Part shown: positions 2 through 60,457 of the stretch, in pieces
How positions within the stretch are numbered: the stretch's first letter is position 1
Layout: each line of letters starts with the position of its first letter
Source of the DNA: an uncultured virus (IMG/VR IMGVR_UViG_3300027785_000021)
Lineage: Duplodnaviria; Heunggongvirae; Uroviricota; Caudoviricetes
DNA length: 64,000 nucleotides
IMG/VR virus record: IMGVR_UViG_3300027785_000021
Coordinates: 1 to 64,000 of that record
Reading direction: 5' to 3' (one strand)
Notes under the pieces: generated by a model
The model's input: the letters and a program-made list of their open reading frames with translations, nothing else
Told to the model about the DNA's origin: nothing
The model's database searches: none
Made by a program: the position numbers and the translations under genes

Positions 2-814
2 GACATACAACAAGCTGAAGTAAACGAGTCTTATAAAATAGAACTTCTTTACAAAGAATTAGTAAAAAAAATAGATGAAAAGATAGCAAAACTAGCTGCT
101 ACAACTACTGCAGATACTACAGCTGATATAGAAAGAAAACAAGCTGAGATAGAATCTTTAGAAAAACAAAAACAAGACTTATTAAAAACTCAACCTACTC
201 AATCAACTACTGGAAAAACATATCAAGAATTACTTAATGAGAAGTGGCCAGATACTAGTGGTTATTTATCAACACCATTAGGTGATAATCTATTTAATAA
301 TGCAGAAAGTAAATTTATTGAAGGAAAACATTTGTATGAAATAAGACCTGTTGGTAATGGTAAATTTGAATATAAATTTATAAATAATAAAAATTCTTTT
401 ACTAGAGCAATTCCTTATCCTGATAGATATGTTAAAGTAGTAACTGAGGAGTTAAATCAGCCTAATGGAGATACAATAGTTACTATACAACCTGGAATTT
501 TAAGAAAAGAAGGTAATGGATTTGTAGTTGAAAAAAAAGCAGAGGTATTTTATGCTAATTCAAATACAATAAATAATAAAGTAGGAGCTACAACTGCAAC
601 ATCTACCGGTAAAGTAGACACAACAGAAATTGATGCTAAGATTACTAAAGCTAAAGAAGAACTATCTGCTGCCAGATTAGCTGCAATTAATGAATCATCA
701 GTAAGAGTTGCTCAGGCTATGTCACAAAAAAATAGTAAATTTGTTAGTGAGGAACAAGTATCTGAAGATACAGTCCTTGACCAATTGAGAAAGATAAATT
801 CTTGTTTTAAATAA
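2..814 (+). CDS. C-terminal part of a large putative virion cargo/ejection protein (5'-truncated by the window edge)
   Basis: The frame of track ORF 332..814 is open back to position 2 (DIQQAEVNESY...); coiled-coil/Thr-rich; ends ...KINSCFK; 11 nt upstream of the RNAP gene. Confidence 0.75.
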   Translation, partial: DIQQAEVNESYKIELLYKELVKKIDEKIAKLAATTTADTTADIERKQAEIESLEKQKQDLLKTQPTQSTTGKTYQELLNEKWPDTSGYLSTPLGDNLFNNAESKFIEGKHLYEIRPVGNGKFEYKFINNKNSFTRAIPYPDRYVKVVTEELNQPNGDTIVTIQPGILRKEGNGFVVEKKAEVFYANSNTINNKVGATTATSTGKVDTTEIDAKITKAKEELSAARLAAINESSVRVAQAMSQKNSKFVSEEQVSEDTVLDQLRKINSCFK

Positions 815-825
815 ACTCTTAAGAA

Positions 826-3800
826 ATGGCATGTGCATTAACTACTGAACAATATATACCTGTAGTAGAAAACTTAATTAAGTTAAATCCAGAAATATAT
901 AGAAACTTTGACAATGCTGCAAAGTTTATTCTTGAAGCAGATTTAACAGATGAGCAAAAGAAATTAGCTCTACATAACATGGCTCATATTTACAATGGGC
1001 TTTCTGGTTTAGATGAAACAAAATATACAATTGGCAAGGGTGTTGATATTATCAACCTTGTCACAAAAATTGATGATACTAAGGACTATGTAAAAAATGC
1101 ATTTGTTATTCTTGAAATTAAAAAACCAAGATTGCAAACTTTTGAAGGTGTATCAACTGCAATAGATAAACTTGCAAATCAAAGATTGATTACACCACAG
1201 GATATAATTCCAACTCTTACGTTGCTTAAAAATTATATTAACACTCATAAATTTGAAACTATTGATGACAAGACTGAAGCAATAGATCAAATACGTGGTG
1301 CATTAAAAGATGTTATCACAAACTTATCTAATGTAGACACTGCATATAAACAAGTGTTGTTTAATCAGATAGATAGTTTTATAGACACGTTACAACCAAA
1401 GTCATCTTATATATCAATAAACTCAATAGCTGAAGAAGCAGAGCTTTCTAATGTTCTTGTGACATTTAGCGATGGGCGTATGATTGAAGTTTTAGGAGTT
1501 GATGGTGTTTTGTTTCAAGTTGAAGATGATAGTTCAGTTGTTGAACTAGATATGACAGATGTCATTAACAAAAAAGATGCACGTCCTGCAGATTTTTCAG
1601 ACTCAAATGATGGTAAGCAAGTTTTCAAAGAAGATTTTCTTTTATCAGGATTATCTATAAGTGCAATTGATCCAGCTGAACAAGAAGTTGTTACTACTGA
1701 ATTAAATAAAATGGCGTCACCTTCTTCAGGTGTAAAGATAACTGCTGTAAGATTAAGTGAACTTGGTGATATGCGTGTTGCTCGTATGAAAGAAGTAGCA
1801 AATGATGATCCTCAGAAAGCTGGATTAATAAATAGAAATCATGAAACATTTGAGAACTCAACTCAGGTTGCACAACTTGAGTCTGATCCAAATGCAAAAG
1901 TATTAACTGTGTCACGTCCAAAAGCTAGTGAGCAGGACTTTGCATTAGTTGGAGAGATACTTTCTACTGGTTCAAAGTTTCATATTTATTCAATGGACAA
2001 CTTTGTATTTGTCTCAGCAGATAATACAACAGAAAGACTTGACATGTCCAACCCAGGACATTTAGAACTTTTAAAAGCATTGTCTTTAAAAAGAACTGGA
2101 GCTGTTACTGAAAACATGCAAGAATCAGATATTACATCTCTTGTTGCTTCTCAGAAATTGTTTCAAGAATTTAAAGATAAGATTTCATATAAAATAAAAA
2201 ATGCATTTGCTTCAGGTACATCAGTAGAAGTTACTGATGAATTTATGCAGATGTATGATTTTACAAATTCAAGATCAACAACTCCTGTAAAAACATCACT
2301 TAAGGAAATAATAGAAAAAAATCCTCAAATGAGTAAGGTTGTTACAGTTGTAACTTTAAATTCAAATGGTGAAATAACCATAGAAGAAGAACGCAAATTA
2401 CCATTTTACTATACAAAGGTTGTTGATTATAAAATGAAATCAATAATCTACAAACAAGTAAAGTTATTATCTGGTAATGAGCGTATTCAGGTAAAAACTC
2501 CTGATGGAAAGGCTGTGTATTTAACTGAGATAGAGTATTCAAATCAAATGAATCTTGAGCCACAGATTAGAGAAATGTTTAAGGCTGAAGATGAACGTTT
2601 GCTTAGTCTTATAAATAATGGACAAGATACGTATAAAGCAAACAAAACTCCAAACTTTGTTATCAAGTTTAGAGCAGATGGTACAATAACGTATGCAATA
2701 GCTCAATCTGTATGGCAATTAGAAAATCCAGAATTCTTTGCAAAGTTTATTACAATTGTATCTGATGTTATTAGTAATCAGTCTACTGGTAAGACAAAGG
2801 GTAAGGCTGTTGAACAAATGGATCGCAACACGTATCAATTCCAACCTATAGCAGTAAAAGGTGGCAAAGGTATGGCGTTAAGTATTGGATTTGCAGTATC
2901 TGCTCCAATGACTGTTAAAGGCTCACCATTAAAACAAAGTCAATTACAAATTGAAATACGTCCATTTAGTAAAGGTGCAGCAAGAGAAAAGTATCAAAAA
3001 ATTATTGTAGATTCTGGTACAAAGGCTGCATATAACATTGTGCTTCCAGAAGCTGAAATCAACAAGTTAGCTAAAGCACTAAAAGAAGGTGCAACTGTAC
3101 AGCGTGTAAAGATGGAAGTTCCATCATTGGCTAGTTTAGATTTAAACAATCCAGAACAACTTCTTGAGTTTTATACTGCTGTTTATGATTTGGCACAATT
3201 GCCTACAACACCTGACAGTGTAAAAGAATTAGCTAAAAACGTAGTAGATGCTCAGAACAACTTTACAACTCTTGTAATGGATACTGTGACAAAACGTTTT
3301 AAAGAAAATCCAACAAATGAACAAACTGGAAAGGGTGTTTTTGATGAATTTCTTGAAGCATTGAAAGAAGACTTTGCAGAAAACTTTACAGTAGATAACT
3401 TATTTGCATATGAAAATGCTGAAGGTAGACAAATACTAAATATTGTATCTCCAGATAATGCAGGTGATCCATATAACGCTCGCTCAACTTACAACAAATC
3501 TTTAAAAAATGTAAAGATACTTGAGTCATCAGGTAGACGTTCTTTTAAACTTGTTGCAAAGTCTGCAGTAAATGTTGCAAAAGCTGATGAAGCTACTGAG
3601 AACATGGATCATACTCAAGCAGAAAAGGATATTATAAATGAAGTAGCAGAAAAGGAAAATGCTCCAGTAAAAATTACACCAGAGAATCCAACTGATGCTC
3701 CACTTCCATTAAGTGATACAGGTAAAGAAGATGTAACAAAACAAGATAATACTGATGAAGCAGAAAGTGAGGATGATGATGTTATTGATATACCACCATT

Positions 3801-6800
3801 TTCTATTACTCTTGATTCAGATTTTGAAGTAGCAACAAAAGAAGATATAGCATCTGAAGCAGAGTGGTTGGCAGAAAACTTACCTCAGTTTGGCATTGAT
3901 GCAACTTCAATGCGTGACATAATTAATCTTGCACGTATTGATGGCACAGTACTAGGTATGTTTAAGGACAAAGTAATATATCTTAATGATGTTGTTACAG
4001 CAAAAGGAACTGTTTTTCATGAGGCATTCCACGGTGTGTTTAGATATCTTCTTTCTGAGAATGAGCGTAAAGCTTTGATCAAACAGGTAATGGATGATCC
4101 AAAACATTCTGCTAAGTTTTCAGCAGAAAATGTTAAGGAGTTTGCAAGAGTTAGAAACATGTCTGTTACAAATTACGACACGCTTGTAGAACTTATTGCT
4201 GAAGAGATACTTGCAGATGGTTTTCAAAACTACATGGGCAAAGAAAGAAAGACAGCTCCTAAAACAGCAATGCAGAAATTCTTTGACATGTTGAAAAAAT
4301 TAATTAACTTCTTTGTCAGAAATAAGAATGAAATTGATTATGTGTATGGTCGCGTAAAACGTGGATACTACAAAACAGCATCAATCAAGTCAAACATATA
4401 CAATGGGCAAGTTGCGTATGAGCTTATACCAGGACTTAAACAATTCTATTTGAATGAGGAAGGTAATGTTGCAAGAGCAAAGTCTGTACTATCACCAGGA
4501 GAACAGGATCAGTTGATTAATATGGTGGTTGGTGTAATGTTTCAGGATAATGTTCAATCAGACACATTTGATATAAGATTCCAACGTGCTGTTGACAAAG
4601 TGCTAAATGAAGTATACAGCATGGAAAAACTTGTTGCTCAAAATCCTGAAAAGCGTGATTTAATAGAACAAAAGTATAGTCAAATAATATCTACTTACAG
4701 GTTTATACTTGGAGGTAGAATGAAAGGTTTAAATGTAAATGATATCAATCTTACAGGTGACATTAAATTTGATAATAAATCAGAAAAGAATGGTGAAAGT
4801 CTTATCAATGGTGAAACCATAGACAATACAATGGGTCAATATTCATTTGAAGTTTTGTCTAGACTTACCAAAGATAAATATGATAAAGCAAACTCTGTTA
4901 AAATACAACGCGATAATGATGAGTTTACACTTGACACTGATGAAATAGAAAATACATTTACTGGTGAAAATGCAAATGAAGTACAAGATGACGAAAGAGT
5001 TTCTGCAAAAGAAGAAGTTGAGAACAATGATTTTGATTCAGGAATGGGTGAGCAAAACAGAATGGATTCATATGTTTCTCAAATAAGAAGATTCTTTTCA
5101 ACATTAAGAAGTGATGAGTTTGATGCTGAAACAGGTGTCAACTTTCCACGTATGATTGATGGTCAAGTTTTATTTCCAACATTACTAAAAATTACAGCAA
5201 GCGTACAGCCAAAAAATATCATTGATACGATTGGTATTATGTCTGAGCAGATGATTAAAGATGGATTTGAAGCAGTAGGTAAAGATTTAAAAATAATTTA
5301 TGATGAGATTCAGACAAGAACAAAAGCTGATTCTCAAGGTGTTGCACAAACAAACAAGCAACTTTTAAATTTGATTACTGAAGTGCTACATGGCGTAGAA
5401 CTAAACTATGTAATGTTTAATGTAGCATCACCTAAGAAAGTTGTAATAGATGAAGTGCAAGGTGGTAATATTGAAAGTGCACTTCAAGAAAAAGATGTTA
5501 CATTTAGGATGTTTGATAAAGTTATGGATGCTGACATTACAAAAAAACGTAATGACATAGTAGCTAACTTCATTAAAAAACATTCTACTGAAGCATCAAC
5601 TCAGGAGTTTAAAGATGCAGTACAATTCTTAAAAACTTTTGGTACTACATTCATGAGTACTCCAGATATATTGTCAAGTCAATTTGGTCAAACACTCAAG
5701 TTAGAGCAATTGACAAATCAAGTTCACAATGCGTTGACAACAATTGGAATGACTGTTCCTAGATCATTAGTTGAGCTTTCCATTTTGGCAATGAATGCTG
5801 AAGAAAACAAAGTAACAAATGATGTAGATTTAAAAATACAAAAGTTTTATGATATAAACGAAAGCTTTGTAAAACAGCAACAGTATCTTGAGAAAGATTT
5901 TTTCAGAAGTTTAGTAGCTATACTTGATTCTGCATACTTGGAATCAGGAGCACCAAACTCACGTATTAGAAATATACTGGACGATGACAAAACAAAAAAT
6001 AAAGATGCAAAACGTTTGCTTGTTATTTTGAAAAAAGCATCTGCGTATGCTGTTAAATATGATCCAACAGATATTCCTAGTGTAATTAAGAATGCAGAAG
6101 GAAAATCAATATTTCGTTTTGCAAAATACAATCCATTAATCATGCTTGGTCAGCGTTTGCAAACAATGACTTTAGAAGAAGCACTAGCAGATGATCCTTA
6201 CTATGAGAACACGCTTAGAACATTTTTGGAAGATAATGTTTTACTTGGTGGCTTACTAAAAGGCGAAGTCAACAAGGACACAGAAAAAATAAACTTATTT
6301 TTGCAAAACTTTACAGTTGCAATGTTTGGTGGTGTTCAACAACGTATTGGGGATGTAGCTAAAAAAGGACAAACGTTTAAATCAGTAGATGAAAGATCAT
6401 TGCACATGTTGCAGATTCTTGCTTTCATGGATAGAAAAACAACTGCTAATAAAGCTGGTACAGAAGTAACAACTTACTTTAGATCTTTTCATCAATTAGA
6501 AGCAACATCTACAAACTTTTTGATATCTGCATTATATGAACCTTTTACATCAAAAGATAAAAAGGAAACAAATGATAGAGGTCAAATACTATATCAAGGT
6601 AAACATTTAAAAATTGTAGAAGATCTTGTTGGTATTGTTGGTCAGGAGTATAACAGAATGTCACGTGAATGGGCACGCAGACTTGATCTAAAACGTGATT
6701 ATGAAAGTGGTAAAAGTAATGAACTTGTAAATAAATATAATGCTGTACTAGAAGACGATGGTGTTACTATTAATGTAGACAGCAAAGACTTGAGAGCATA

Positions 6801-9800: not shown

Positions 9801-12800
9801 AGAGTTTAAAGATATACTTGAAAGATTTGGTATTGATTTAAAAACAATATCTAAAAAATCTAACTTGTTTACTCCTACCAGCATGATTGAGTCAAAGGTA
9901 GAAAACAACATGAATAAGGATGGTATTGGACGTACTGCTGTAATGAATAAGTTTTTATCTCTAGCAAGTCAATATAATTTAAAACTTTCTGACAAAGGGA
10001 TAGTTTGGGCATATCAAAAACTAGACAAAAGCATTGTTCTTAAAGATACGTTTGGCCAGCTTAATGAAAATGAAGACAGAGTTATTGCAATCATTGGTAA
10101 CATACTTGGTATGTTTGCAGATGGTGCTAAGGACCCAATACCATCAGCTCTTCAAATGAATGAGATAAATGCTAGTACAACACTAGCAATGATAGGTGTA
10201 GGGTTAGATCCAGACTTTGCAGTAGCCTTTAACTTCTTACCTGAAGTGCGTAAAGCTGCATTAGCAGTTCAGCAATCTCAATTTGCATTATCAGAAGACT
10301 TAGAACAAGATTATTTATTTTATAATCAGGCTATTAAAAATCAACTTTCAGATTTAATTGAAGAAAATGAAGATGCATTTAATAAATTAAAGTCTGCAGG
10401 ATTCTTTACAAGCAAGTCATTTAAAGATTTTGCTGTTATGGATGACCCATTGGCAGTGCGAATTGGATTTGAAGCACAAAAATTAAATATTTACGCTCTC
10501 AAGAATAATGAACTTACGCCATCATCAATTGGTTTTGAAATGGTTTATGACAAAACTAATGAGATGCTTACTGAGGCTGAGATGAAAATGGTTCTTCTTA
10601 CATTCTATGCAAAACAAGCACAACAAACATGGGCTATTAATAGAGCTGCTAGTATAACAAATTTATTCAAGCGTTTGAATCCAAGTCTTGTAGCATTTGA
10701 CAAAATGCGTGATAATATAACTGAGCTTATTGAAGATGAAAAACTCTTTACGAAAGAGTCAGCTGCTAAGTTGTTTGAAGATGATCAAGTATGGTCTATT
10801 TTAAAAGATGCACTTGACGATGCCAATGAGCAATTTTCAAAAATATTCTTAGAAAGAACACCTTTCTTTAAACCAATTACTAATGCATTTAAAGGATATT
10901 TTGAAGATCCAAAAACTGTTGCAAATACTTTGACAAGTTTCTTGTCACTTAACAAGTTCAAGATGACGTTTCCTGCGTCAAGAACTTCTGATAATGAATA
11001 TGTACAGTCAATATATGATAAGGATGATGAAATGATTTTAAAAACATTCTCACCTGAGTATTGGTTTACAAATGACCTATTTGCACAAGTAGAAAAATTC
11101 AGAGAAAAGTATCCTAAGAATGAGTTTCTAAAATTATTACGTTCTGCAGATTCAAAAAATACAGCAACAGTAATTTATAATGGTAAATCTTATCAAGGTA
11201 TCAATGAAAGATTCATATCTATGATAAGTAAAGCTAAAGTAAAAGGTGACTATGCAGGAAAGGTAGCTGATGCTATTGCTCAGTTGTATAACAGTGGCAT
11301 GGTAGAAGAACGACAGTTTATTAAAAACTTATTTTATCATGATGTGGTAAGAACAGGTCTTCAACATAAAGAAGGTTCTTTCATAGGACTTATGCCAGCA
11401 GAGTTATTGATTCCATTGTCTGGTTATATTCAGGAATTCATAGATGGTATTCAAAATGTAACCACTAGTCCAAATTTTGAAGAAGCTTTTGAGAACTTTA
11501 TTAAAGCATACACTGGTGAGACAACAGATACTGGTGTAGTAACATTCTTTGATGAGATGTTTACTCAACTTGCATATGCTGCGTCTTCAGAAAATAACAA
11601 TCAAAAGATACCTAAGTTTAAAAACAAAGGTAAGGATGGTAAAATGAACACGCGTTCTGTAGTATTTTCAGTAAACTTTAAAAAACCACAGTTCTCAAAA
11701 CCATTGGTAAAAGCGTTTTTAGATCAATCTGTAACTCCTGATTCAGAAAGTTTGACAACTGCCAAAGTGAAAGCAATAAACTTTACACTTGACGCATTAG
11801 ATTTGCAACTTCCAGAAAGTATTGATTTGGCAAAAACTGATGTTATAAACATTGCAGATGCGCTTACTGACGAGTTTACAATAAGATTGTCAAATAAGAA
11901 TGAAAAAGCAAATGTGACATTAGGTAAAATGTTTGGTGTTGTAAAAGATATGAGTGAACCTGATTCATCTGAGTATGTATTCCCAAGTATACTAAGAATT
12001 GGTATAAAAACATTTGTTCTACAAGGAGTTGATGGTAACGCTGCTGGTGGAAAATCAATTGGCTCAAATCTTTATGATTCTATTGTTGGCAAAACAACAT
12101 TGACAAACGTTGGGACTTACGCTAAGTATTCAGTGATACCTGATCAATATGCGTCAGAAGCTCTTAGTCCAATAGCATTTACAACAGAAAATGCAAATGC
12201 ATACAAACGTTACATTGATAAGAAAGAAGCAATTGTATTTAACACTAACATTATTGATACTGCTAAGAAAGATGAAAAAATTAGTACAACAGTAAATGAA
12301 AATGTTAAAATACCTGACGATTTAAAAGACCCTACTGAAAATGTAATTATAGAACAAGATCCTTCTAAAGACCAATTAGAAAAAAATGCAGGTGATATAG
12401 TAGATGGAATATCTTCTGAGAAAGGTGCTTCAAAATCTCAGATTGAATTTGGCAATGATCTTTTAGATCAGCTACTTAAAAATGTAATGGGCGAAGGTAC
12501 ATCAAATGTTTCTGAGGTTCCAAAGTTACAACGAGGTAGGTATGTAAAATATAATGGTGAAACTTATATTGTCACTAAGCAAAATGAAGATGGGACATGG
12601 CAAATATATAATCCACTACTTGAAGGTGCTAAAGCTAAAATATCAGTAGCAGAAACAAATATGAAGACTCTTGAAATGATTGCAAAAATTATTGAGTATA
12701 AAGATTCTGAATATATAGTAACATCTAAAAATACTATCATATCTTTGACAACTAATAAAAAGATGATGTGGGGTGAGAATGATGGAAACAGAAAGGCAAT

Positions 12801-12885
12801 TCTAGGTCTTGCTGGTCAAAATAAAACCATTATTAAACCAACTAATAGACCAAGCATTGATCCAACAGACGAAAATAATTGTTAG
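826..12885 (+). CDS. Giant crAss-like virion-associated two-barrel RNA polymerase with N-terminal zincin-like domain (4019 aa)
   Basis: GSDFDIDSL catalytic DxDxD loop at 9061-9087, preceded by ATRIPT (R-x-P, 8950); FDGQS near 7576; HEAFH at 4018-4032 with downstream EEILAD (4201); size and context match crAss-like virion RNAP genes. Confidence 0.88.
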   Translation: MACALTTEQYIPVVENLIKLNPEIYRNFDNAAKFILEADLTDEQKKLALHNMAHIYNGLSGLDETKYTIGKGVDIINLVTKIDDTKDYVKNAFVILEIKKPRLQTFEGVSTAIDKLANQRLITPQDIIPTLTLLKNYINTHKFETIDDKTEAIDQIRGALKDVITNLSNVDTAYKQVLFNQIDSFIDTLQPKSSYISINSIAEEAELSNVLVTFSDGRMIEVLGVDGVLFQVEDDSSVVELDMTDVINKKDARPADFSDSNDGKQVFKEDFLLSGLSISAIDPAEQEVVTTELNKMASPSSGVKITAVRLSELGDMRVARMKEVANDDPQKAGLINRNHETFENSTQVAQLESDPNAKVLTVSRPKASEQDFALVGEILSTGSKFHIYSMDNFVFVSADNTTERLDMSNPGHLELLKALSLKRTGAVTENMQESDITSLVASQKLFQEFKDKISYKIKNAFASGTSVEVTDEFMQMYDFTNSRSTTPVKTSLKEIIEKNPQMSKVVTVVTLNSNGEITIEEERKLPFYYTKVVDYKMKSIIYKQVKLLSGNERIQVKTPDGKAVYLTEIEYSNQMNLEPQIREMFKAEDERLLSLINNGQDTYKANKTPNFVIKFRADGTITYAIAQSVWQLENPEFFAKFITIVSDVISNQSTGKTKGKAVEQMDRNTYQFQPIAVKGGKGMALSIGFAVSAPMTVKGSPLKQSQLQIEIRPFSKGAAREKYQKIIVDSGTKAAYNIVLPEAEINKLAKALKEGATVQRVKMEVPSLASLDLNNPEQLLEFYTAVYDLAQLPTTPDSVKELAKNVVDAQNNFTTLVMDTVTKRFKENPTNEQTGKGVFDEFLEALKEDFAENFTVDNLFAYENAEGRQILNIVSPDNAGDPYNARSTYNKSLKNVKILESSGRRSFKLVAKSAVNVAKADEATENMDHTQAEKDIINEVAEKENAPVKITPENPTDAPLPLSDTGKEDVTKQDNTDEAESEDDDVIDIPPFSITLDSDFEVATKEDIASEAEWLAENLPQFGIDATSMRDIINLARIDGTVLGMFKDKVIYLNDVVTAKGTVFHEAFHGVFRYLLSENERKALIKQVMDDPKHSAKFSAENVKEFARVRNMSVTNYDTLVELIAEEILADGFQNYMGKERKTAPKTAMQKFFDMLKKLINFFVRNKNEIDYVYGRVKRGYYKTASIKSNIYNGQVAYELIPGLKQFYLNEEGNVARAKSVLSPGEQDQLINMVVGVMFQDNVQSDTFDIRFQRAVDKVLNEVYSMEKLVAQNPEKRDLIEQKYSQIISTYRFILGGRMKGLNVNDINLTGDIKFDNKSEKNGESLINGETIDNTMGQYSFEVLSRLTKDKYDKANSVKIQRDNDEFTLDTDEIENTFTGENANEVQDDERVSAKEEVENNDFDSGMGEQNRMDSYVSQIRRFFSTLRSDEFDAETGVNFPRMIDGQVLFPTLLKITASVQPKNIIDTIGIMSEQMIKDGFEAVGKDLKIIYDEIQTRTKADSQGVAQTNKQLLNLITEVLHGVELNYVMFNVASPKKVVIDEVQGGNIESALQEKDVTFRMFDKVMDADITKKRNDIVANFIKKHSTEASTQEFKDAVQFLKTFGTTFMSTPDILSSQFGQTLKLEQLTNQVHNALTTIGMTVPRSLVELSILAMNAEENKVTNDVDLKIQKFYDINESFVKQQQYLEKDFFRSLVAILDSAYLESGAPNSRIRNILDDDKTKNKDAKRLLVILKKASAYAVKYDPTDIPSVIKNAEGKSIFRFAKYNPLIMLGQRLQTMTLEEALADDPYYENTLRTFLEDNVLLGGLLKGEVNKDTEKINLFLQNFTVAMFGGVQQRIGDVAKKGQTFKSVDERSLHMLQILAFMDRKTTANKAGTEVTTYFRSFHQLEATSTNFLISALYEPFTSKDKKETNDRGQILYQGKHLKIVEDLVGIVGQEYNRMSREWARRLDLKRDYESGKSNELVNKYNAVLEDDGVTINVDSKDLRAYKFNILSDFFENDENASLNEDLIDLAKNQVPFNEIDPKDLLEALDEYARKEFQAYLDTLEKLGAITKVSIPVGKEIVDPRPGAKVKFPTQYYTSDMLPKTISQGYAASDKTKISDAYNQPYGAKADSALDPIENLLFDMFMGNWRNSLHLNQLMDGDMALNVKNAQDYVKRLKKIVASGSNMKDGTHRVAYMNTITGFIHEQMPQYGPYYSSGEIISDFTIPSELVREQLLEGYEKAIDGVKESINGSTVKWADMMREVFDGQSISTLMHQMDMHDTLGRLDERGMYILIAKHYRALTEQETKYLESMKIVNNAKKTITADRNIYHKLSEGYIDRTDVSTLIIKPNTDESVADATARVYDELHGLYMQAYDLRKDRELASTEADTINETARINTEIENVYKSIHEYYEPMPHRKILHDILSSMEIFQIDQLMDTTSSKNATLLPLDVMKAERTESGYINFRMAALDVPNSAKYLQVETSGVKDKAKHSVQAKMLLPANIAEDQFREVIEIEARKAGDILTEDDILSIENVKRSLNDYQLSLRKSTKARLLYFTEVLRKGDDFELGKIFTMIRESLQLQSAPKNILDMFAVKPDGKPVFSPNLSLIRTTLEYYMIAQYSKNVTDEKVSGFKNFHESSFGYNVLVDPATNQVITTEEYAANPEAFKDRKLRSRPLGVSIETQADGSKIYFVEAIMPKPFFENQQQEAFYKQNLTKMFATRIPTEDKRSMIVIKVVDYVDSSKMNNIIVPHFVHLLSGSDFDIDSLFGRMMSYYKNGKGNYNLYGDYSQYKDIDTGQFIEFMHYMSKHEDIGPLIKQRKKELIEQGTIEMPMGGALFEIIENLGFTIEDLTEHFDQKIVKSKYTDQKDFTSYMFELTKESKDFYVNAKELAEQNPENRELAKTRNAYGRELGDLKAIRKQSVDEQRVLKEKMRYIDTMFEYQSIMDVLAKFNMPSNVSQFNARPAFSEMVSPKFQNQNLAASIKILGNEAVFKYLYINQRSSTQEFKDILERFGIDLKTISKKSNLFTPTSMIESKVENNMNKDGIGRTAVMNKFLSLASQYNLKLSDKGIVWAYQKLDKSIVLKDTFGQLNENEDRVIAIIGNILGMFADGAKDPIPSALQMNEINASTTLAMIGVGLDPDFAVAFNFLPEVRKAALAVQQSQFALSEDLEQDYLFYNQAIKNQLSDLIEENEDAFNKLKSAGFFTSKSFKDFAVMDDPLAVRIGFEAQKLNIYALKNNELTPSSIGFEMVYDKTNEMLTEAEMKMVLLTFYAKQAQQTWAINRAASITNLFKRLNPSLVAFDKMRDNITELIEDEKLFTKESAAKLFEDDQVWSILKDALDDANEQFSKIFLERTPFFKPITNAFKGYFEDPKTVANTLTSFLSLNKFKMTFPASRTSDNEYVQSIYDKDDEMILKTFSPEYWFTNDLFAQVEKFREKYPKNEFLKLLRSADSKNTATVIYNGKSYQGINERFISMISKAKVKGDYAGKVADAIAQLYNSGMVEERQFIKNLFYHDVVRTGLQHKEGSFIGLMPAELLIPLSGYIQEFIDGIQNVTTSPNFEEAFENFIKAYTGETTDTGVVTFFDEMFTQLAYAASSENNNQKIPKFKNKGKDGKMNTRSVVFSVNFKKPQFSKPLVKAFLDQSVTPDSESLTTAKVKAINFTLDALDLQLPESIDLAKTDVINIADALTDEFTIRLSNKNEKANVTLGKMFGVVKDMSEPDSSEYVFPSILRIGIKTFVLQGVDGNAAGGKSIGSNLYDSIVGKTTLTNVGTYAKYSVIPDQYASEALSPIAFTTENANAYKRYIDKKEAIVFNTNIIDTAKKDEKISTTVNENVKIPDDLKDPTENVIIEQDPSKDQLEKNAGDIVDGISSEKGASKSQIEFGNDLLDQLLKNVMGEGTSNVSEVPKLQRGRYVKYNGETYIVTKQNEDGTWQIYNPLLEGAKAKISVAETNMKTLEMIAKIIEYKDSEYIVTSKNTIISLTTNKKMMWGENDGNRKAILGLAGQNKTIIKPTNRPSIDPTDENNC

Positions 12886-12887
12886 GT

Positions 12888-13475
12888 ATGGCACTAAAAT
12901 GTAGAACAGATATTAAAAAAGCAATTACAAAAAAAGCAATTGCACCACATGTTTCAAAGAATGTTCAACAGACTTCTTTTGATAGATTGTTTATTTCTAA
13001 TGAGGCATTTCCTAGTGGCAAATCACAAGTTTACAAGGTTGCTGAAAGTATAGTCAATAAAACTAATAAAGATTTTAAGGGTAATATCGCATATCGTAAT
13101 GAGATGAGCAATGGTCAAGAGATTGTTTTTAATCCATCTCAGGATATTGTCACTGTTTATTACAATGAATACTTGAAAGCTGTTACTGAACAAGAGGCAC
13201 GCGCAATACAACGTGCTGATGCTGAGCGTGCAGGTATAGAGTATGATGATGATTATCTTTTTGACAATGAAGAATCTAGTAATCCTCTTTATGATATGTA
13301 TGAAGATATGGCAAACCTAGAACTAACTCCAGCAGTAATTGAGTATCTTTATAGTGATGGTAGTAAAAGAATGCGTATTGATAAGTTTGCACAAGCTGCT
13401 AAAGACTTAGCAACAAACTTACGTGGCATGAACTACACTAATGATGAGATACTTGAAAAAATAAAATGTTTATAA
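12888..13475 (+). CDS. Small putative cargo/linker protein (195 aa)
   Basis: ATG 2 nt after the RNAP stop; its stop lies 1 nt before the next ATG; Cys only at residue 5 and the penultimate residue. Confidence 0.75.
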   Translation: MALKCRTDIKKAITKKAIAPHVSKNVQQTSFDRLFISNEAFPSGKSQVYKVAESIVNKTNKDFKGNIAYRNEMSNGQEIVFNPSQDIVTVYYNEYLKAVTEQEARAIQRADAERAGIEYDDDYLFDNEESSNPLYDMYEDMANLELTPAVIEYLYSDGSKRMRIDKFAQAAKDLATNLRGMNYTNDEILEKIKCL

Positions 13476-13476
13476 G

Positions 13477-16400
13477 ATGAGTGCATGTCCAAATATAAAT
13501 GACCAAGCCTGGAAAGATTTACTAATAGCTTTAGGTAATGAAGCAGATGCAATGACTGCGTTTGTTATAAATAATAATGAGATTCCATCTGTTGACAAAG
13601 CAAAAGATTTATTAAAACAATTGCGTATTCAGGATAAGGATGAACAACTTTCTCTTGCATCAGATCAGTTTAAGTTAAGCAGATCAGTGCAGCAGCGAGC
13701 AATGTTGGAAACAGTAAAACTACGTTCAAATCTTGCACAACGTGCCACTATAGAGAAACTAATAGAGATGAATGATTTATATCAAGATTTTCTTAACTCA
13801 AACATTGAAGCAGCAAAAAATGGTAGCCCTATTGAAAAAACGTTAAGTGTATCCAAGTTCATTGGTTCTTCTGACTTTAAAGGTGATCCAAAAGAATATG
13901 AAGCATTCAAACTGTTTGGTACATTTATGCATGAGTTGCTTGAAATTGGACAGGTTGAGGCACTGAAGTCAGGTAAAACAATTGCTCAAATTTACAATGA
14001 GGAGTTTTTTGAAAAAGCTTATGAGGCATACACTAAAAAAAATCCATTTGAAATACAGAAACTTACAAAAGAAGAGATGTATGAGATGGCATTTGGATTA
14101 GTACAGCATGTTAATAGTAAAAATGCTAGTGGTTATGTGATACTTCCAGAGGTTACAATTGTTGGAACATCTCTTTCTGGTAGTAAGGTTATTGGGCGTC
14201 TTGATATTTTGATGATTGACTCAGTGGGACGTGTTCATATCTATGACTTTAAAACTAAAAAGATTAAGTATCTTACTGAGCGAAATCCATTCAGTGGACA
14301 AAATGAAGTTGTAGTTGACAAGGCTCTCATAGAACTAGCCAACAAAAGGTATCCAATTGCTAATACACCTGGCGTAGCAACAGAATTTCAAAAAATATCT
14401 TTGCGTTCTACATATGATGTATGGATGATGCAGTTAGATATTTATGACAACATCCTGAAACAAGGAGGCATTGATGTAGCAAATAAAACTATATCATCTT
14501 TAATGTATCAGATTGATGAAAATGATAATTCATATGTTGCTAGTGTACTTCATGTATTTGAAGATCAGGAGTATTATGATCAAGCACGTAGTGCAAGATT
14601 AACTACAGATGGTTATTGGTTCTCAAATGTTGATTCAACAAATGATGTTGTGTTTAAAGTAAAACGTGCAGCTGCTATTGAAATACCAACAGGTGAATTT
14701 ACTGAAGAAGAAATAAAAAGTAAATCACCAGAAGAATTATTTGACATTAATCCTACTGATAAAAACATGAAAGATTTTGTCAAAGTTCTTGATGACATTA
14801 TTGATGGACAAATTGCAAAGATTTATGAAGATATTAATGAAGCAAAAAACAAACCTAATCGCGATAAAAAGTATGAAGAACTTCTTGCTGCGCGTAGAGA
14901 TACACTGAATAACTTTAAGAAAATTGTAGACAAACTTAAAACTACAAATCCAAATGCACTTGTAAACTCCGCTAACTTTTTTAATGCTCTTAATGTTATG
15001 GAGCAAGACTTGGAGACAATGAGCAAAATTTCAAGAATGGCTCTTGATGCATACATGACTGGTTCACCAAATGACAAAATACGTAATCTTGATAAGGTAC
15101 GTGAAGCATTTAATAAAAGTGTAGTACTTGACGCTGTAATTGAAGTAATGAATCAGATTGTTAATGAGGCTGCAGAAAATGAAGAAAACAAAATTGGTGT
15201 AGATAGTCCTGTGAGACAACGATTGACACAACTTACAATCTATGCAGAACAAATACAATCAGACTGGAAGAAAATTGGTATGGCCAATGCTGTTACAGTA
15301 ATGATGTCTCCAGGTGAATCTGTATTTGGTAAAGTAAATGAACAAAAACGCCAAGCACTTGAAATAGAATTAGAACGCTTAAATGAAGAAGCTGAAAAAT
15401 TAAAAACAAATCCTAAACTTGGGTTATACAAGCAAGCAAAAATTAAATTCTTTAGTCTTACAAACAAAAACTTTAGAGAAAAAGTAAAAGAAGCAATGGG
15501 TCCTAATGGCTCTATTGTACTTGCAGAAATATCAAGAGTTGAAAAACGTATTATGCAAATTGAAATGTTACTTCAAGGATTTGAATTCTCAGAAGAAGCA
15601 ATGGAGAAATACATTAGTGGGGTTACTGATCATACACAACCTTTTTATGCTGGTATGCCAAATCCTTATGCTGGTTCTGATACAATACTTGGTGGTTGGA
15701 TGATGGATTCTGCTATTGCCTCAGCATCAAATTCTGACTTGGCAATTTCTGCATTTACAACAATGCTCAAAGATTTTAAATCTCAAGCAGAATACAATGT
15801 AATGAATGATGCCAAACTACAAAAGTTTGATAGATTACGTAGACAACTTCTTGACAAAGGTTTTTCTGTTGAGGATTTGAATAAAGCAGTTTCAGAATGG
15901 CGTGAAGTATCTTTTTATGATTCAAAAACTGGTGAGATAACAAGTAAAAAAATACTTACTTATATTAAACCTTTCAGTGCTGAGTATGAAAACACATACA
16001 AAGGATTCCAACAAAAGCTACGTATACTGAATAAAGAAGTATATGAATTGCGTGCTGTGTATAATGAGAAGTTTAATACACCAGAAAAAGCAGACGCAGA
16101 ACAAAAATACAACGATAAAAAAGCTGAGAGAGATAATCATAATAATGGTATGATTGAGTGGATGTTGAATAATGCCAATCTACCATATGTTGATGAATTT
16201 TATAATTTACAATTAAAGCTTCCTGAAGATATACGTGATGCAATGCAGAAGATATATCTTGAGCAAGAAGTAATTTTACACAGTGTTGGTAGAGGTAATG
16301 AAGTTTTACTTGAAGAAATGGATTTTGACAGACTTCAAGAACTTGATGCTGCATTAAAAGATTTACGTTTACAAGCAATGGAACGTAGTCCTGAGTATGC

Positions 16401-19400
16401 TGAGTACATGGAAAAACTTGATGAGTTGTATGAGTATGATACCAATGATAACTTTTTCAGGGTTATGGAGAAAAATGCTAAGGTGCTTTACTCTGATGAC
16501 AAAGAAAAACTTGACAAATGGTATGGTTTAAATACAGTAACACGTCCAACAGCTGATTGGTATGAAGCAGTAAGTGAATTATATGACCAACGTGCAGAGT
16601 ATCTTTCAAGTGATCCTGAAATTAAAGAGTTGTTTGATAGAAAAAAACGTATCATGGCTCCTTACAAAAATGCAGGAAGATTTAATCCTAAGTATTTGAC
16701 TGATGAGGAAGTTATGGAACTTGATTCTATTGAGGCTGAAATAGAAGATATCATTGAAGGTAAAAAAGGCACACCTTCAACTCTTACAAAAGATGAAAAA
16801 AGAGAAGTTGCAAGGATAACTCAAGAAATAAGAAAACTTGTTTCATTTGAAATTAATCCAATTTACAATAAAGAGTTTGACACTAGATATAGAATTCTTG
16901 AGAATGCTTATACTCAGATTGTGTTATCACAAAACAATCTCACACTTGCAAGAAATAAAGGTGTGGATGCTGATATACAAGCAGCTGAAGATGATGTTAT
17001 ATTTGCTGTTACTAGATTTGGTAGAGTAGAAGGTGAATTTCAAACATGGTTTGAAAAAAATCATTACAATAAGTATGAAAGTATCACAGTTAAAAAAGAT
17101 TTAAGAGCATACAAGGTTCCTAAATCATTTAACTTTGAAAGACTTCCTTCAGCTACTGTTGTAGATAAGTACATGGAACAAGTACCAAATCCAAAATATT
17201 ATAAAGTAAAACGTTTACGTCTTGGTAACTGGACACTGGATGACAAAAGATTATCAAATGCACAAATAGAAGAATTACAAGAAGATCCTGAAAATATAAA
17301 AGCACTTCATGTTTCTGGTAGATTGAATATGAAACCAGGAGCTTACAATCCAAATTTTATAAAAGGACCTGAAGGTGTTCCATTACCAAAAGAAATAAAA
17401 GTAGACAGTGATGGTCATTATTATATTGATCCTAAAGCTGGTCCAAGTAAAAACATTAGTGATAAATATCTTCAGCTTTTAAATAACAAAGAACAGTTTG
17501 ATTTTTATAATAGCATGATGGATATATACTTTGATTTACAAAAGAAAATTGAAGGTAGAAAAATTGGATACCAAGTTCCAGGATTTGCGTCATCTTTGAT
17601 AGAAGGTATTGCAAATGAGAGTTTTGGAAAAGGTTTTTCTAAACAGTATAAGTCATTTGTTGACAAGCATTTTAAAGCAATGGGTCAACAAGATATGTCA
17701 GAAAACATTTATGGTGATATTAGTTCACGTATAAGAATGCGTTTTTCTAATCAATTAGGAGAAGAAATACAATCTTCAGATGCGATTGGTTCTTTTATGA
17801 AGTGGACTACTGAAGCTCACATGAACATTTCTATGCAAGAAGTTGCACCTGTATCTAAGGGATTTATTGAGTTTATGAAACTGCAGCGTAATCAATTGGC
17901 AAAGGATCGTTTGAAAGGTGAGATTTATGTTACAGATGAAAAAACTGGAGAAAAAACAAAAATTGACATAGAGAAAAAACTTGCTGAGATAGATAATCTT
18001 TTAAAGATTGTTGAATTTGAAAACAAGAAGTTCTTGTATGGTATAACTGAAAACACAACTGATGCTGGTAGAGCTACAAAAAAAGTTATTGATGGATTCT
18101 TTAAGTACACTAGTTTTATCAGAATTGGATTTGACATTGCCAATCAAACAAAAAACTATACGTCAGGTAATGTTCAAGCTTTTTTAGCTGCTGGTGGTAG
18201 CGATAGCGCACACTACAGTAAGAAAGATTGGCTTTTTGCAAAAGGTAAAGTATATGGATACAGTGGATTTTTGTCAAACTATCTTAAGGATTGGGGACGC
18301 ATATCTGACTTGTCTGAAACAACAATGCTTTATAGAATGATGAATCCTGCACAAAAAGATATTATTAAATACTTTCAAGATTCATCAGGTTCAAAAGGAC
18401 GCAGGCTTGCTGAGAAATTAACATCTATTGGTGATCTTGGATATATGCTTCAAGATAAAGGTGATACAGAAATTGCAGTTACAGTAATGTATGCAATAAT
18501 GAATAACTATAAATTTGAACAAATTGAAAGCATTGATCCTATTACAGGTGATAAGATCTTTAAACGTGATGCTAAAGGTGAAATTGTAATGGTGTCATCT
18601 CATGAGGCATACATTAAAGATGTTGATGGAAACTTGGTTATCAGAAATGATGTAAACTATACTAAAGAAGATGAAAAGCGTATAAGAAATATTATTTATT
18701 CAGAAATGCGTAGAGCACAAGGTAACTATGCTAGTGCAGATCAAACAGAATTTGAAAGTAGGGTACTTGGTAAGATGGTTTTCTTTTTTAGAAAATTCTT
18801 GGTTCCACAATTCTTAAATAGATTTGGATACTTGCGTCCTAACTGGGAAGGTTCAGAAGTATCAATTGGATATTGGAGAGCTTTTGGAAGAGCAATGAAA
18901 CTTTTTGGTGTTGGAAATACTATGAAAGAATTTCTTGTGGGTTCAGATACACTTTCTAAGATGGGACTTTCAGGTGGTGTAAAAACATATGTAATAAAAG
19001 ATCCAAAAACAGGTACTGTTGTTAAGACAGTTGATGCTGGAGATTTTTATTCAAAACGTGTGCATCATGCAAGACGTGATGCAATTGCAATGGCATTGCT
19101 CACAGTGATTAGTATGTTGTTATTATCATTTGTAAGGCGTAGAGATGATGATGATGAGGAGTTGAGTATACTTGAAGGTAATGCAATAAGAGTTATTTGG
19201 GGTACAAAAGCAGAAACTGTTTCTATGTTTCCAGTTGGAGAAGGTTCTCAGGAGTATGTTAAGAATTTTACTACAGCAATACCATTTGTACGTGAATTCT
19301 CAGCAACAATTAAGATGCTCAACCATGGTTTAAAATATGGCATGGCTATGACAATGAATGGTGGTGAAGAACCAGATCCAAATTATGATTCTGAATTGTA

Positions 19401-19563
19401 TCAGGAAGTTTGGAAAGATGCTTTCTATTCAAGAAAATCAGGAGCTTATGAAAAGGGTGATGCAAAATTTGGAAAAGATTTTGTAGATTTAACTGGTCTT
19501 AAAAACTTTAGAGATATACTTGATCCAAATTATAAAATTGATGTACTAAAACGTAATCAATAA
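13477..19563 (+). CDS. Giant putative ejection protein with N-terminal PD-(D/E)xK nuclease domain and C-terminal hydrophobic helix (2028 aa)
   Basis: GTFMHELLE, E...GRLDILMID...IYDFKTKK and QLDIY are RecB/Cas4-type motifs (about 13918-14445); long helical middle; hydrophobic AIAMALLTVISMLLLSFV at 19081-19134. Confidence 0.78.
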   Translation: MSACPNINDQAWKDLLIALGNEADAMTAFVINNNEIPSVDKAKDLLKQLRIQDKDEQLSLASDQFKLSRSVQQRAMLETVKLRSNLAQRATIEKLIEMNDLYQDFLNSNIEAAKNGSPIEKTLSVSKFIGSSDFKGDPKEYEAFKLFGTFMHELLEIGQVEALKSGKTIAQIYNEEFFEKAYEAYTKKNPFEIQKLTKEEMYEMAFGLVQHVNSKNASGYVILPEVTIVGTSLSGSKVIGRLDILMIDSVGRVHIYDFKTKKIKYLTERNPFSGQNEVVVDKALIELANKRYPIANTPGVATEFQKISLRSTYDVWMMQLDIYDNILKQGGIDVANKTISSLMYQIDENDNSYVASVLHVFEDQEYYDQARSARLTTDGYWFSNVDSTNDVVFKVKRAAAIEIPTGEFTEEEIKSKSPEELFDINPTDKNMKDFVKVLDDIIDGQIAKIYEDINEAKNKPNRDKKYEELLAARRDTLNNFKKIVDKLKTTNPNALVNSANFFNALNVMEQDLETMSKISRMALDAYMTGSPNDKIRNLDKVREAFNKSVVLDAVIEVMNQIVNEAAENEENKIGVDSPVRQRLTQLTIYAEQIQSDWKKIGMANAVTVMMSPGESVFGKVNEQKRQALEIELERLNEEAEKLKTNPKLGLYKQAKIKFFSLTNKNFREKVKEAMGPNGSIVLAEISRVEKRIMQIEMLLQGFEFSEEAMEKYISGVTDHTQPFYAGMPNPYAGSDTILGGWMMDSAIASASNSDLAISAFTTMLKDFKSQAEYNVMNDAKLQKFDRLRRQLLDKGFSVEDLNKAVSEWREVSFYDSKTGEITSKKILTYIKPFSAEYENTYKGFQQKLRILNKEVYELRAVYNEKFNTPEKADAEQKYNDKKAERDNHNNGMIEWMLNNANLPYVDEFYNLQLKLPEDIRDAMQKIYLEQEVILHSVGRGNEVLLEEMDFDRLQELDAALKDLRLQAMERSPEYAEYMEKLDELYEYDTNDNFFRVMEKNAKVLYSDDKEKLDKWYGLNTVTRPTADWYEAVSELYDQRAEYLSSDPEIKELFDRKKRIMAPYKNAGRFNPKYLTDEEVMELDSIEAEIEDIIEGKKGTPSTLTKDEKREVARITQEIRKLVSFEINPIYNKEFDTRYRILENAYTQIVLSQNNLTLARNKGVDADIQAAEDDVIFAVTRFGRVEGEFQTWFEKNHYNKYESITVKKDLRAYKVPKSFNFERLPSATVVDKYMEQVPNPKYYKVKRLRLGNWTLDDKRLSNAQIEELQEDPENIKALHVSGRLNMKPGAYNPNFIKGPEGVPLPKEIKVDSDGHYYIDPKAGPSKNISDKYLQLLNNKEQFDFYNSMMDIYFDLQKKIEGRKIGYQVPGFASSLIEGIANESFGKGFSKQYKSFVDKHFKAMGQQDMSENIYGDISSRIRMRFSNQLGEEIQSSDAIGSFMKWTTEAHMNISMQEVAPVSKGFIEFMKLQRNQLAKDRLKGEIYVTDEKTGEKTKIDIEKKLAEIDNLLKIVEFENKKFLYGITENTTDAGRATKKVIDGFFKYTSFIRIGFDIANQTKNYTSGNVQAFLAAGGSDSAHYSKKDWLFAKGKVYGYSGFLSNYLKDWGRISDLSETTMLYRMMNPAQKDIIKYFQDSSGSKGRRLAEKLTSIGDLGYMLQDKGDTEIAVTVMYAIMNNYKFEQIESIDPITGDKIFKRDAKGEIVMVSSHEAYIKDVDGNLVIRNDVNYTKEDEKRIRNIIYSEMRRAQGNYASADQTEFESRVLGKMVFFFRKFLVPQFLNRFGYLRPNWEGSEVSIGYWRAFGRAMKLFGVGNTMKEFLVGSDTLSKMGLSGGVKTYVIKDPKTGTVVKTVDAGDFYSKRVHHARRDAIAMALLTVISMLLLSFVRRRDDDDEELSILEGNAIRVIWGTKAETVSMFPVGEGSQEYVKNFTTAIPFVREFSATIKMLNHGLKYGMAMTMNGGEEPDPNYDSELYQEVWKDAFYSRKSGAYEKGDAKFGKDFVDLTGLKNFRDILDPNYKIDVLKRNQ

Positions 19564-34170: not shown

Positions 34171-34632
34171 TTAATTAGAATTTTCCATATCTGATGGAAA
34201 GTATTTACCCATAATGTTGCCATTATAACTGTTTGCTGTTAACACATCATTTTTCATTTGATGTGAAATCTCACAGTATCCAAGGTATTTTTTGGAATAA
34301 CACACTTCTAGAATCTCACGTTTAAAATAAGATGGTCCTACAAGTTCAAGTTCAAACTTTAACTCTTCACAAGAACCATAATAAGATTTCCATGTTGATT
34401 CTTTTACTACACGCTTGAAAGTTTTTCTTGTCTTTGTCTGCGTTTTCTCTCTGATAGAGATCTTTGTCTTTCTTTCACTGTATAGACTTTTCTTACCTAT
34501 GTAAAATCTTCCAGTAATTGTGTTGGTTATCATATAGACAAATCCAACAGCTTCTTCAAAATTGGGAAAGTCTTCAATAGAAAGAACTTCCTTACCTAAT
34601 CCATTGTTAGGGTTATAAATCCAATTGCTCAT
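34171..34632 (-). CDS. GIY-YIG family endonuclease
   Basis: GFVYMITNTITGRFYIGKK, YYGS, FKREILE, E, YNGNI. Confidence 0.8.
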   Translation of the reverse strand: MSNWIYNPNNGLGKEVLSIEDFPNFEEAVGFVYMITNTITGRFYIGKKSLYSERKTKISIREKTQTKTRKTFKRVVKESTWKSYYGSCEELKFELELVGPSYFKREILEVCYSKKYLGYCEISHQMKNDVLTANSYNGNIMGKYFPSDMENSN

Positions 34633-41871: not shown

Positions 41872-42288
41872 TTAAGTTAATTTAGATTGTGACAAATTCA
41901 TTTCTCTTGCTTCTTTTGGATGAGTTTCTACCCATTGATGGCAAGATAAACACAAAGGTATCCAGGTTTTCTTATCAAGATAATATAACCCTCTTCCCTT
42001 AGTATGGTGCACTGTCAAATTCTCCTTGAATTGACCCATGCACTCAGGCAATTTTGCTCTACATGTAGAGTTTAAAGGTTCATTTAAGAACTCTTTACGC
42101 ATCTTGCTGTATAAAACATCAAGTACGTCTTTTTTATCAGATTTTGGTTTAATTGATCTTTTGTTTGATGGTGTTTTAGTCACCTCTTGAGAGTACCAGC
42201 AGTCTTTGCAGTATTTATTACCCTCATGGTTTTTCCAGATCATTTTGTCCAGCTCACAGCTAGAACATTTTTTAAGTTTTACTTGCAT
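41872..42288 (-). CDS. HNH endonuclease-like protein with N-terminal Zn finger
   Basis: CSSC...CKDC; C....C...TVHHTKGRG...LCLSCHQWVE. Confidence 0.7.
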   Translation of the reverse strand: MQVKLKKCSSCELDKMIWKNHEGNKYCKDCWYSQEVTKTPSNKRSIKPKSDKKDVLDVLYSKMRKEFLNEPLNSTCRAKLPECMGQFKENLTVHHTKGRGLYYLDKKTWIPLCLSCHQWVETHPKEAREMNLSQSKLT

Positions 42289-53398: not shown

Positions 53399-53420
53399 AT
53401 ATTCTAAATTAAATTAATAG

Positions 53421-53452
53421 AAAAGAGAGAAGGACACTGATGTCCCTCTCTC
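53421..53452 (-). terminator. Hairpin/terminator between the AAA and vWA genes
   Basis: Minus strand gagagagggaca-tcag-tgtccttctctc followed by a T-run. Confidence 0.55.
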
Positions 53453-53487
53453 ATTATCTACATCGCTGATCCTACTACAGCATGTCT

Positions 53488-59904: not shown

Positions 59905-60095
59905 ATAGGTTGTTTCAGTAGTTCCACAAGGGAACTTAACGCATACGCCATGAGTATCTAAACTCTGAGGGCAACAACAATGTATACTTAAATCAGGACT
60001 CTTACCTGCAAATCCCTACATAGTCAATAGGAATGGCTTTCTCATAAAAAACTGACTTGCAAATCAGAATAATATGATAAGAAAAAAGGGAGAAC

Positions 60096-60317
60096 TTAAT
60101 CTCCCATATCAACAGAGTACGCAATCCTTTTAACAGGATCAACATATAGACAGGATGAACCTGACCTATTACTAAATGCTTTCTCATAATTACCCTTAGG
60201 AAGAGTAATACCAGAGTTAAGCCAACCAAGCCAATTAACTCCTTGTGCTAACATATGTTGTTTAGCTTCTTCATAGGAGTAATACTTATCAATGGTAACT
60301 AATAGAATGTTTGTCAT
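60096..60317 (-). CDS. Hypothetical protein
   Basis: 73-aa ORF. Confidence 0.55.
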   Translation of the reverse strand: MTNILLVTIDKYYSYEEAKQHMLAQGVNWLGWLNSGITLPKGNYEKAFSNRSGSSCLYVDPVKRIAYSVDMGD

Positions 60318-60457
60318 AGACGTGGGTTTTAATGTGGTTAATAGCTATATAGTACGTAAATTCATTGTGTTATTGTGGCAAAAAACTAAAAGCAAAGAAA
60401 GGTATAGTGAGGGACTGATCCCCCACTCTTACCTCCTCTAAATCAGGTAGTTACTTG

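Follow-up and report, generated by a model that had tools for sequence, protein, structure and literature searches.

The crAss-like phages are the viruses found most abundantly in the human gut, and polymerase-associated protein amounting to some 0.7-0.9 MDa must leave each of them by a narrow tail. How this is done is the question raised by a stretch of 64,000 nt (positions 1 to 64,000 of IMG/VR record IMGVR_UViG_3300027785_000021, an uncultured virus of the Caudoviricetes; hereafter the window), which opens with four consecutive genes. Their products are best explained as a block of cargo packaged by a distant crAss-like phage, consisting of an associated protein (member 1), a giant virion RNA polymerase (RNAP) protein (member 2), a small adaptor (member 3) and a nuclease-bearing protein (member 4). 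The cysteine (Cys) residues of these proteins are confined to the ends that face a neighboring member, a pattern that is confirmed here as real, strongly conserved and precisely defined. We give a probability of about 0.6 to the reading that disulfides lock the four proteins head to tail into a chain in the virion, which reduction in the host then opens.

Open reading frames (ORFs) were called on the + strand with translation table 11. The window record is one 78.6-kb contig that opens inside the first cargo gene, and the chain is laid out as follows.

2-814, + strand: chain member 1, 3' part, 270 codons visible; ORF open at the contig start
803-805, + strand: TGT, the only Cys of member 1, residue 268 of the 270 visible, -3 from the end (...NSCFK, stop)
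826-12885, + strand: chain member 2, the giant, 4019 amino acids (aa); complete ORF
832-834, + strand: TGT, Cys3 of the giant (MAC...), towards member 1
12880-12882, + strand: TGT, Cys4019, the final residue of the giant (...DENNC, stop), towards the adaptor
12888-13475, + strand: chain member 3, the adaptor, 195 aa; complete ORF
12900-12902, + strand: TGT, Cys5 of the adaptor (MALKC...)
13467-13469, + strand: TGT, Cys194 of the adaptor (...KIKCL, stop)
13477-19563, + strand: chain member 4, 2028 aa, C-terminus without Cys; complete ORF
13486-13488, + strand: TGT, Cys4 of member 4 (MSACPN...)

A preliminary description of this DNA had claimed six Cys, none of them internal and all within five residues of a terminus, and a recount of the translations agrees: the six terminal Cys are the only ones in the four cargo ORFs. 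All six are encoded by TGT, and the spacers along the chain are 11, 2 and 1 nt. The start codons are tightly fixed because an in-frame stop lies 2-5 codons 5' of each ATG.

The 78.6-kb contig has no terminal repeat and its first gene is not continued across its ends (circular closure check); it is incomplete. The missing part of member 1 was supplied by a 123-kb IMG/VR contig of the same phage, with 100% identity over 270 aa. The complete protein is 2001 aa long, begins MAEELEMG, is bare of Cys at its N-terminus and has its only Cys at -3. A linear chain had been predicted to lack Cys at its first N-terminus and its last C-terminus, and both ends, in the 2001-aa and the 2028-aa protein, are as predicted. 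The chain totals 2001 + 4019 + 195 + 2028 = 8243 aa with six Cys, each within five residues of a junction-facing terminus. Upstream on the 123-kb contig, the 895-aa protein preceding member 1 has zero Cys, and the protein preceding that has four internal Cys. At both of its ends (L006, L007) this contig has one and the same part of the first cargo gene, in copies 100% and 77% identical to the window, which suggests a circular assembly joined from two strains.

The 75 other ORFs of the 78.6-kb contig contain 200 Cys in 16,646 aa (1.20%). At this rate about 99 Cys would be expected in 8243 aa, versus the six observed (Poisson P = 1.4e-34), and for all six to land by chance among the 30 terminal positions that face a junction the probability is about 2e-15. 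One 138-aa protein (41872-42288, - strand) has eight Cys in CxxC pairs (5.8% Cys), which shows that the phage is free with Cys elsewhere.

The arrangement is conserved in homologs, in which a Cys was counted as terminal when it lay within 10 residues of a terminus. The first protein (87 homologs) has an N-terminal Cys in 0/87 and a C-terminal one, at -1 to -4, in 84/87, with 5 internal Cys in 147,082 aa; the giant (119 homologs) has an N-terminal Cys in 112/119 and a C-terminal one in 119/119, with 91 internal in 481,906 aa; and the last protein (117 homologs) has an N-terminal Cys in 112/117 and a C-terminal one in 0/117, with 79 internal in 234,057 aa, all of these being counts over often related sequences and not numbers of independent events. 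Internal Cys make up 0.003-0.034% of residues, versus the 1.20% background. The exceptions are mostly odd proteins: the three first-protein homologs lacking the C-terminal Cys are shorter, have unrelated ends and are probably fragments; five of the seven giants lacking the N-terminal Cys are shorter with odd N-termini, the other two being distant proteins of 4636 and 4942 aa with a C-terminal Cys only; and the five last proteins lacking it (1302-1814 aa) are missing the usual N-terminus. In alignments, C3 and C4019 of the giant do not vary (alignment A2, 29 sequences), nor do C4 of the last protein (51/51) and Cys5 and Cys194 of the adaptor (9/9). Terminal Cys are kept in homologs down to about 22-30% identity, at offsets of 1-9 residues from the stop and 2-8 from the conserved ATG. 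The mapping across relatives that had been proposed as a check was thus run on these homologs, and found the Cys concentrated at junction-facing termini; all predictions of the preliminary description that could be computed were borne out.

Whether the two sides of a junction go together was examined in pairs of neighboring same-strand ORFs, both of at least 100 aa and one of at least 1000 aa, separated by -60 to 200 nt, complete at the junction and with distinct 40-aa flanks (n = 249). Cys was found on both sides of 121 junctions, on neither side of 114, on the C-side only of seven and on the N-side only of seven; the sequences are related, and these figures measure consistency and not the number of events. 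Twelve of the 14 discordant junctions are accounted for. Four (L101, L102, L103, L106) are start-codon artefacts of the longest-ORF rule, the second ATG giving MSCTVKI. Six adjoin an ORF of 162-165 aa inserted between the partners (L111, L113, L114, L120), and two (L133, crAss001) have the partner on the other strand. The inserted ORF is ferritin-like (PF00210, E ~1e-22) in the two cases scanned with Pfam, L111:16774-17271 and L120:17983-18471, and those of L113 and L114 resemble them by their termini. These loci belong to distant relatives, and the ferritin-like protein itself contains Cys; as an iron- or oxidant-handling protein it might conceivably take part in forming the links. The junction Cys codons were TGT in 92 and TGC in 29 C-termini, and TGT in 107 and TGC in 14 N-termini; since both codons are used, selection acts on the residue.

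The Cys pairs are strictly coupled to gene breaks, being absent at fusions and present where relatives split a protein that is continuous here. The adaptor is built of two conserved modules, an N-module that contains Cys5 and a C-module, about 65 aa long, that ends in ...IKCL; in relatives an insert of 0-550 aa lies between the two. In 54 giants the C-module (...KCL) is found at the extreme C-terminus and the extra Cys pair is absent, while a profile search with the N-module gave 0 matches in 323 proteins. In L100, a single protein of 4363 aa, with 0 internal Cys, matches the first protein as well as the giant. Conversely, the break between crAss001 gp47 and gp50 and that in L101 both fall at about residues 1235-1275 of the window giant, where the latter is continuous and Cys-free, and both breaks carry a Cys pair. 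Of 66 distinct chains, 37 are complete, with two (10 chains), three (23) or four members (4); partial chains run to four members or more. A tree built from 45 last proteins requires at least four changes of architecture, of which well-supported branches force no fewer than two in the separate-adaptor state, in a tree made by a quick method, with the midpoint root for drawing only and the key row L047 on a long branch. Last proteins of 2232-2296 aa were considered as adaptor+last fusions, which was not borne out: neither adaptor-module profile was found in them, and they have instead an N-terminal extension of about 300 aa.

The identity proposed for the cargo draws on the motifs below and on other genes of the phage.

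4018-4032, + strand: HEAFH (H1065-H1069), zincin-like metalloprotease motif of the giant; H1065, E1066 and H1069 invariant in A2
9067-9081, + strand: DFDID (D2748-D2752), DFDxD motif of the giant; D2748, D2750 and D2752 invariant in A2
13909-14304, + strand: PD-(D/E)XK nuclease-like region of member 4, residues 145-276; phrog_1218 exonuclease, E = 2e-5

DFDxD is named as the catalytic motif of the crAss-type virion RNAP (10.1101/2020.03.07.982082). The DFDID region of the giant matches the annotated RNAP catalytic subunits of crAss002 and crAssphage, as well as crAss001 gp50, at BLAST level, and its HExxH region aligns with crAss001 gp47, towards the C-terminus of the latter. Members 1, 2 and 3 had no match in PHROGs or Pfam, and sequence searches of the PDB with the giant and with its RNAP region gave no real match; because these searches were empty, the RNAP assignment is based on the motif and on the BLAST-level matches to annotated crAss genes. 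For member 4, PF12705 is present in the precomputed annotation of many homologs, and a Pfam scan of the window protein itself gave nothing at E <= 0.01. The genome carries a terminase, portal and major head protein of crAss-like kind (PHROGs). By tblastn these are 23-26% identical to their counterparts in Crassvirales, Flavobacterium and Cellulophaga phages; for the portal, the identity to the cultured Leptolyngbya phage Lbo-JY46 is 32.7%. The features of a crAss-like RNAP cargo block, namely DFDxD, the zincin motif and a crAss-type terminase, portal and capsid, are found together, and the phage is a distant relative of Crassvirales, whether inside the order or outside it. Some giant homologs (P0147-P0230) carry lineage-specific extra domains, including RNase H, DUF1768/YbiA-like, 2OG-Fe(II) oxygenase and ART-PolyVal (precomputed Pfam), which suggests that accessory enzymes may be injected riding on the polymerase thread.

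The closest systems with virion data are crAss001 gp47/gp50/gp49 (PMC10172136) and phi14:2 gp65-gp67 (10.1101/2020.03.07.982082), which are homologous to the window proteins and share the DFDxD and zincin motifs. These homologs are virion proteins and their RNAP enters the host cell; by homology, the window proteins are probably packaged too. The virions of crAss001 contain gp45, gp46, gp47, gp49 and gp50, and the cargo must partly unfold to exit (PMC10172136). The window phage differs from these Crassvirales in its 123-kb genome, in having all four chain members encoded on one strand, and in making the adaptor as a protein of its own.

Three cultured or model phages, crAss001, the prototype crAssphage and Lbo-JY46, follow the junction-Cys rule. 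In crAss001, which has about 694 kDa in gp47, gp50 and gp49 together, the only Cys of gp47 is at -3 and that of gp49 at 5, while gp50 has one at 5, one at -9 and a single internal one. Here gp47 is encoded on the strand opposite to gp50 and gp49, so the chain, envisaged as gene-ordered in the preliminary description, need not keep to the order of genes on one strand. In crAssphage, gp45 has a Cys at -2 plus two internal, and gp44 has a Cys at 3 plus seven internal and none C-terminal. Lbo-JY46, a cultured cyanophage and the nearest isolate, has a two-member chain (L056, PP438436.1, 8774-21680): the only Cys of a 1552-aa protein is its last residue, and the only Cys of the next protein, of 2748 aa, is at position 4. 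BLAST detected no homolog of the RNAP region of the window giant in this two-member chain.

A structural precedent for such a link exists in cyanopodophage A4 (Anabaena phage A-4L), where cryo-EM revealed a disulfide between gp27 Cys1715 and gp26 Cys5. The C-terminal helix of gp27 is docked in a cleft of gp26, and the bond is described as a stabiliser of a mortise-and-tenon pentameric pre-ejectosome (PMC12002296). In the A-4L genome (NC_024358), gp27 (1717 aa) has its only Cys at -3 and the next-encoded gp26 (1114 aa), after a gap of 5 nt, has its only Cys at 5; the neighboring gp29 has no Cys. As in the window, these are adjacent ejection genes, with Cys only at the C-terminus of the upstream product and only at the N-terminus of the downstream one. 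Unlike the window, A4 (family Saffermanviridae) has one junction rather than three, smaller proteins and no RNA polymerase, and in the available text of the A4 paper the bond is neither given as a general rule nor tied to gene fusion or fission (PMC12002296).

Suppression of Cys is also on record. It is a conserved feature of the N4-like ejection operon, the reason given being passage through the envelope in an unfolded state, and in Schitoviridae (N4 gp50-52, DEV gp71-73), as in the window, a giant virion RNAP and its co-ejected proteins are nearly Cys-free (PMC11445570). The Schitoviridae differ in having essentially no Cys even at the termini, and in that their RNAP is a single T7-like polypeptide of 3400-3500 aa; the window chain has six conserved terminal Cys and none internal instead of a total absence. 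In the available text of the crAss001 paper the word 'cysteine' is absent, and 'disulfide' is used only for capsid and tail proteins (PMC10172136); that of the phi14:2 preprint (10.1101/2020.03.07.982082) and of PMC13434306 makes no mention of either. The literature searches made here found no published account of a multi-junction Cys rule in crAss-like cargo. The idea that the pattern had not been described before can therefore be kept for the multi-junction rule in crAss-like phages and must be given up for its two components, Cys suppression (PMC11445570) and one such disulfide (PMC12002296). What is new here is that a single published disulfide and a published Cys-suppression rule are extended to a rule that spans several junctions and goes with gene architecture, in another and very abundant group of phages.

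In the mechanism that we favor, each C-terminal peptide or module would dock on the N-terminal end of the next member, and the facing Cys would be oxidised to a disulfide after the virion leaves the reducing cytoplasm. The four polypeptides would then make one head-to-tail thread of 8243 aa, a disulfide-stitched polyprotein. The link sites lie at most five residues from the termini in the window, and at most nine from the junction-facing terminus in the relatives examined; because they are so close to the ends, the thread would stay almost linear and could pass the tail C-end to N-end, partly unfolded. Thiol reductants of the host cytoplasm would then separate the members with no need for a protease, and the purging of internal Cys would prevent wrong crosslinks. 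Such links might also have a role in stoichiometry, and one may speculate that the chain orders ejection. Like viral polyproteins, the proposed chain would be one long thread later separated into working parts; unlike them, it would be released at reducible joints between separately translated proteins rather than by a protease. For the fused forms, the phi14:2 preprint supposes cleavage (10.1101/2020.03.07.982082).

Several observations weigh against this mechanism or limit its reach. The disulfide in crAss-like cargo is suggested by the Cys pattern, the one solved link being that of A4, and A4 is a precedent by analogy: BLASTP of A4 gp26/gp27 against the window proteins detected no similarity (best E = 0.3), and the likeness appears to lie in design and not in detectable ancestry. 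The mechanism would need some means of keeping the pairing specific among three junctions, and no thiol oxidase or thioredoxin was found among the 67 other ORFs of the contig, outside which some 45 kb of the genome lie. The relatedness of the homologs has been mentioned above. Internal Cys are tolerated in some lineages: P0217 has six, and crAssphage gp45 and gp44 together hold nine in 6027 aa. Two discordant junctions, L107 and L114 628/1007, are left without explanation. Finally, some proteins have a sole terminal Cys and no visible partner next door, namely crAssphage gp47 (L138, BK010471.1; 857 aa, Cys at -2), which is followed by the Cys-free gp46, and two proteins with their only Cys at 5, one of 674 aa in Lbo-JY46 (L056:2677-4701, MKKKC...) and one of 718 aa in L111 (L111:2142-4298, MKKRC...). 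These possibly link to partners encoded elsewhere.

The pairing at junctions shows only that two ends work together, and the members might be in real head-to-tail contact through a shared metal ion, another thiol-based bond or a non-covalent clasp in which the Cys are structural. The conserved modules around the Cys (...IKCL with MSxCPN; DENNC with MxxKC) suggest docking surfaces, which such a clasp would use, and assembly happens in the reducing host cytoplasm. We nevertheless consider contacts of this kind unlikely. A tetrahedral metal site usually needs more than two thiols, and no His or Cys that might complete one is conserved beside them; the only solved case with the same signature, A4, is a disulfide (PMC12002296), and disulfides are present elsewhere in crAss001 virions, in capsid and tail proteins (PMC10172136).

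Sequence cannot say which Cys pairs with which, and disulfides of another topology can be imagined, with homodimers of the end members and middle members that close on themselves or polymerise; or the links may be a static brace that holds the cargo core inside the capsid and plays no part in threading. The A4 bond is described as a pre-ejectosome stabiliser and not as a tow line, which suits a brace, and the loss of both internal Cys on fusion also fits a middle member closing on itself. Homodimers, however, give no reason why the Cys is always at the C-end of the first member (N-terminal 0/87) and the N-end of the last (C-terminal 0/117), a polarity also seen in the two-member chains L085, L100, L123 and Lbo-JY46, and the A4 bond joins two different proteins, the C-end of one to the N-end of the next-encoded (PMC12002296). 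We regard this family of explanations as quite unlikely, and retain the head-to-tail chain.

A translational origin was also considered, in the form of programmed bypassing of the T4 gene 60 type, with take-off at the C-terminal Cys codon and landing on the next N-terminal Cys codon. The six TGT codons, the spacers of 1-11 nt and the Cys codon of the giant followed directly by the stop are what such an event might look like, but a fixed, short distance between take-off and landing on one mRNA is not found in the relatives. The partners gp47 and gp50 of crAss001 are on opposite strands, a whole gene (ferritin-like in L111 and L120) lies between the partners in L111, L113, L114 and L120, gaps reach 77-130 nt in L101 and crAssphage, and the Cys offsets vary on both sides of the junction. 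Bypassing also leaves the purge of internal Cys unexplained, and it was rejected as very improbable. It is scarcely credible that the pattern is due to chance, to shared ancestry alone or to some nucleotide-level signal where genes meet: although the homologs are related and TGT is expected to dominate at 32% G+C, the odds of the depletion (~1e-34) and the placement (2e-15) are minute, the pattern persists to about 22-30% identity and across architectures, new pairs are found at new break points, TGC is also used, and unrelated A4 proteins have the same signature.

Outside the cargo block, the window has a few other features of interest.

25345-27252, - strand: class II (B12-type) ribonucleotide reductase
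34171-34632, - strand: SegE-like GIY-YIG homing endonuclease between replication genes
51530-54774, - strand: MoxR/CbbQ-type AAA+ ATPase gene beside a VWA/CobT-like gene
60001-64000: G+C up to 0.40, versus about 0.33 in the rest of the window

A gene pair for a MoxR-type ATPase and a VWA protein is usually a chaperone-like system, and is not commonly seen among the replication genes of a phage.

The order and interactions of ejected proteins are called unresolved in the crAss001 atlas (PMC10172136) and in a 2026 N4 paper. A rule that can be read from sequence and names the ends that touch would be a wiring diagram of the cargo. It would account for the lineage-specific splitting of the cargo block, and it predicts a redox switch for release. 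In annotation, it can help to identify chains of packaged cargo and to set start codons right, as for L101. Since crAss001, Lbo-JY46 and A4 are all cultured, and mass-spectrometry runs of crAss001 virions exist in reduced and non-reduced form (PMC10172136, Methods), the chain idea is testable. More tentatively, and with somewhat less than even odds, the packaged polymerase block across crAss-like phages may be one modular thread, in which peptide bonds are exchangeable for terminal disulfides at almost any domain boundary, so that genes could split and fuse freely. Such a thread would be ejected end to end in a fixed order and fall apart on reduction, a redox-triggered substitute for polyprotein cleavage.

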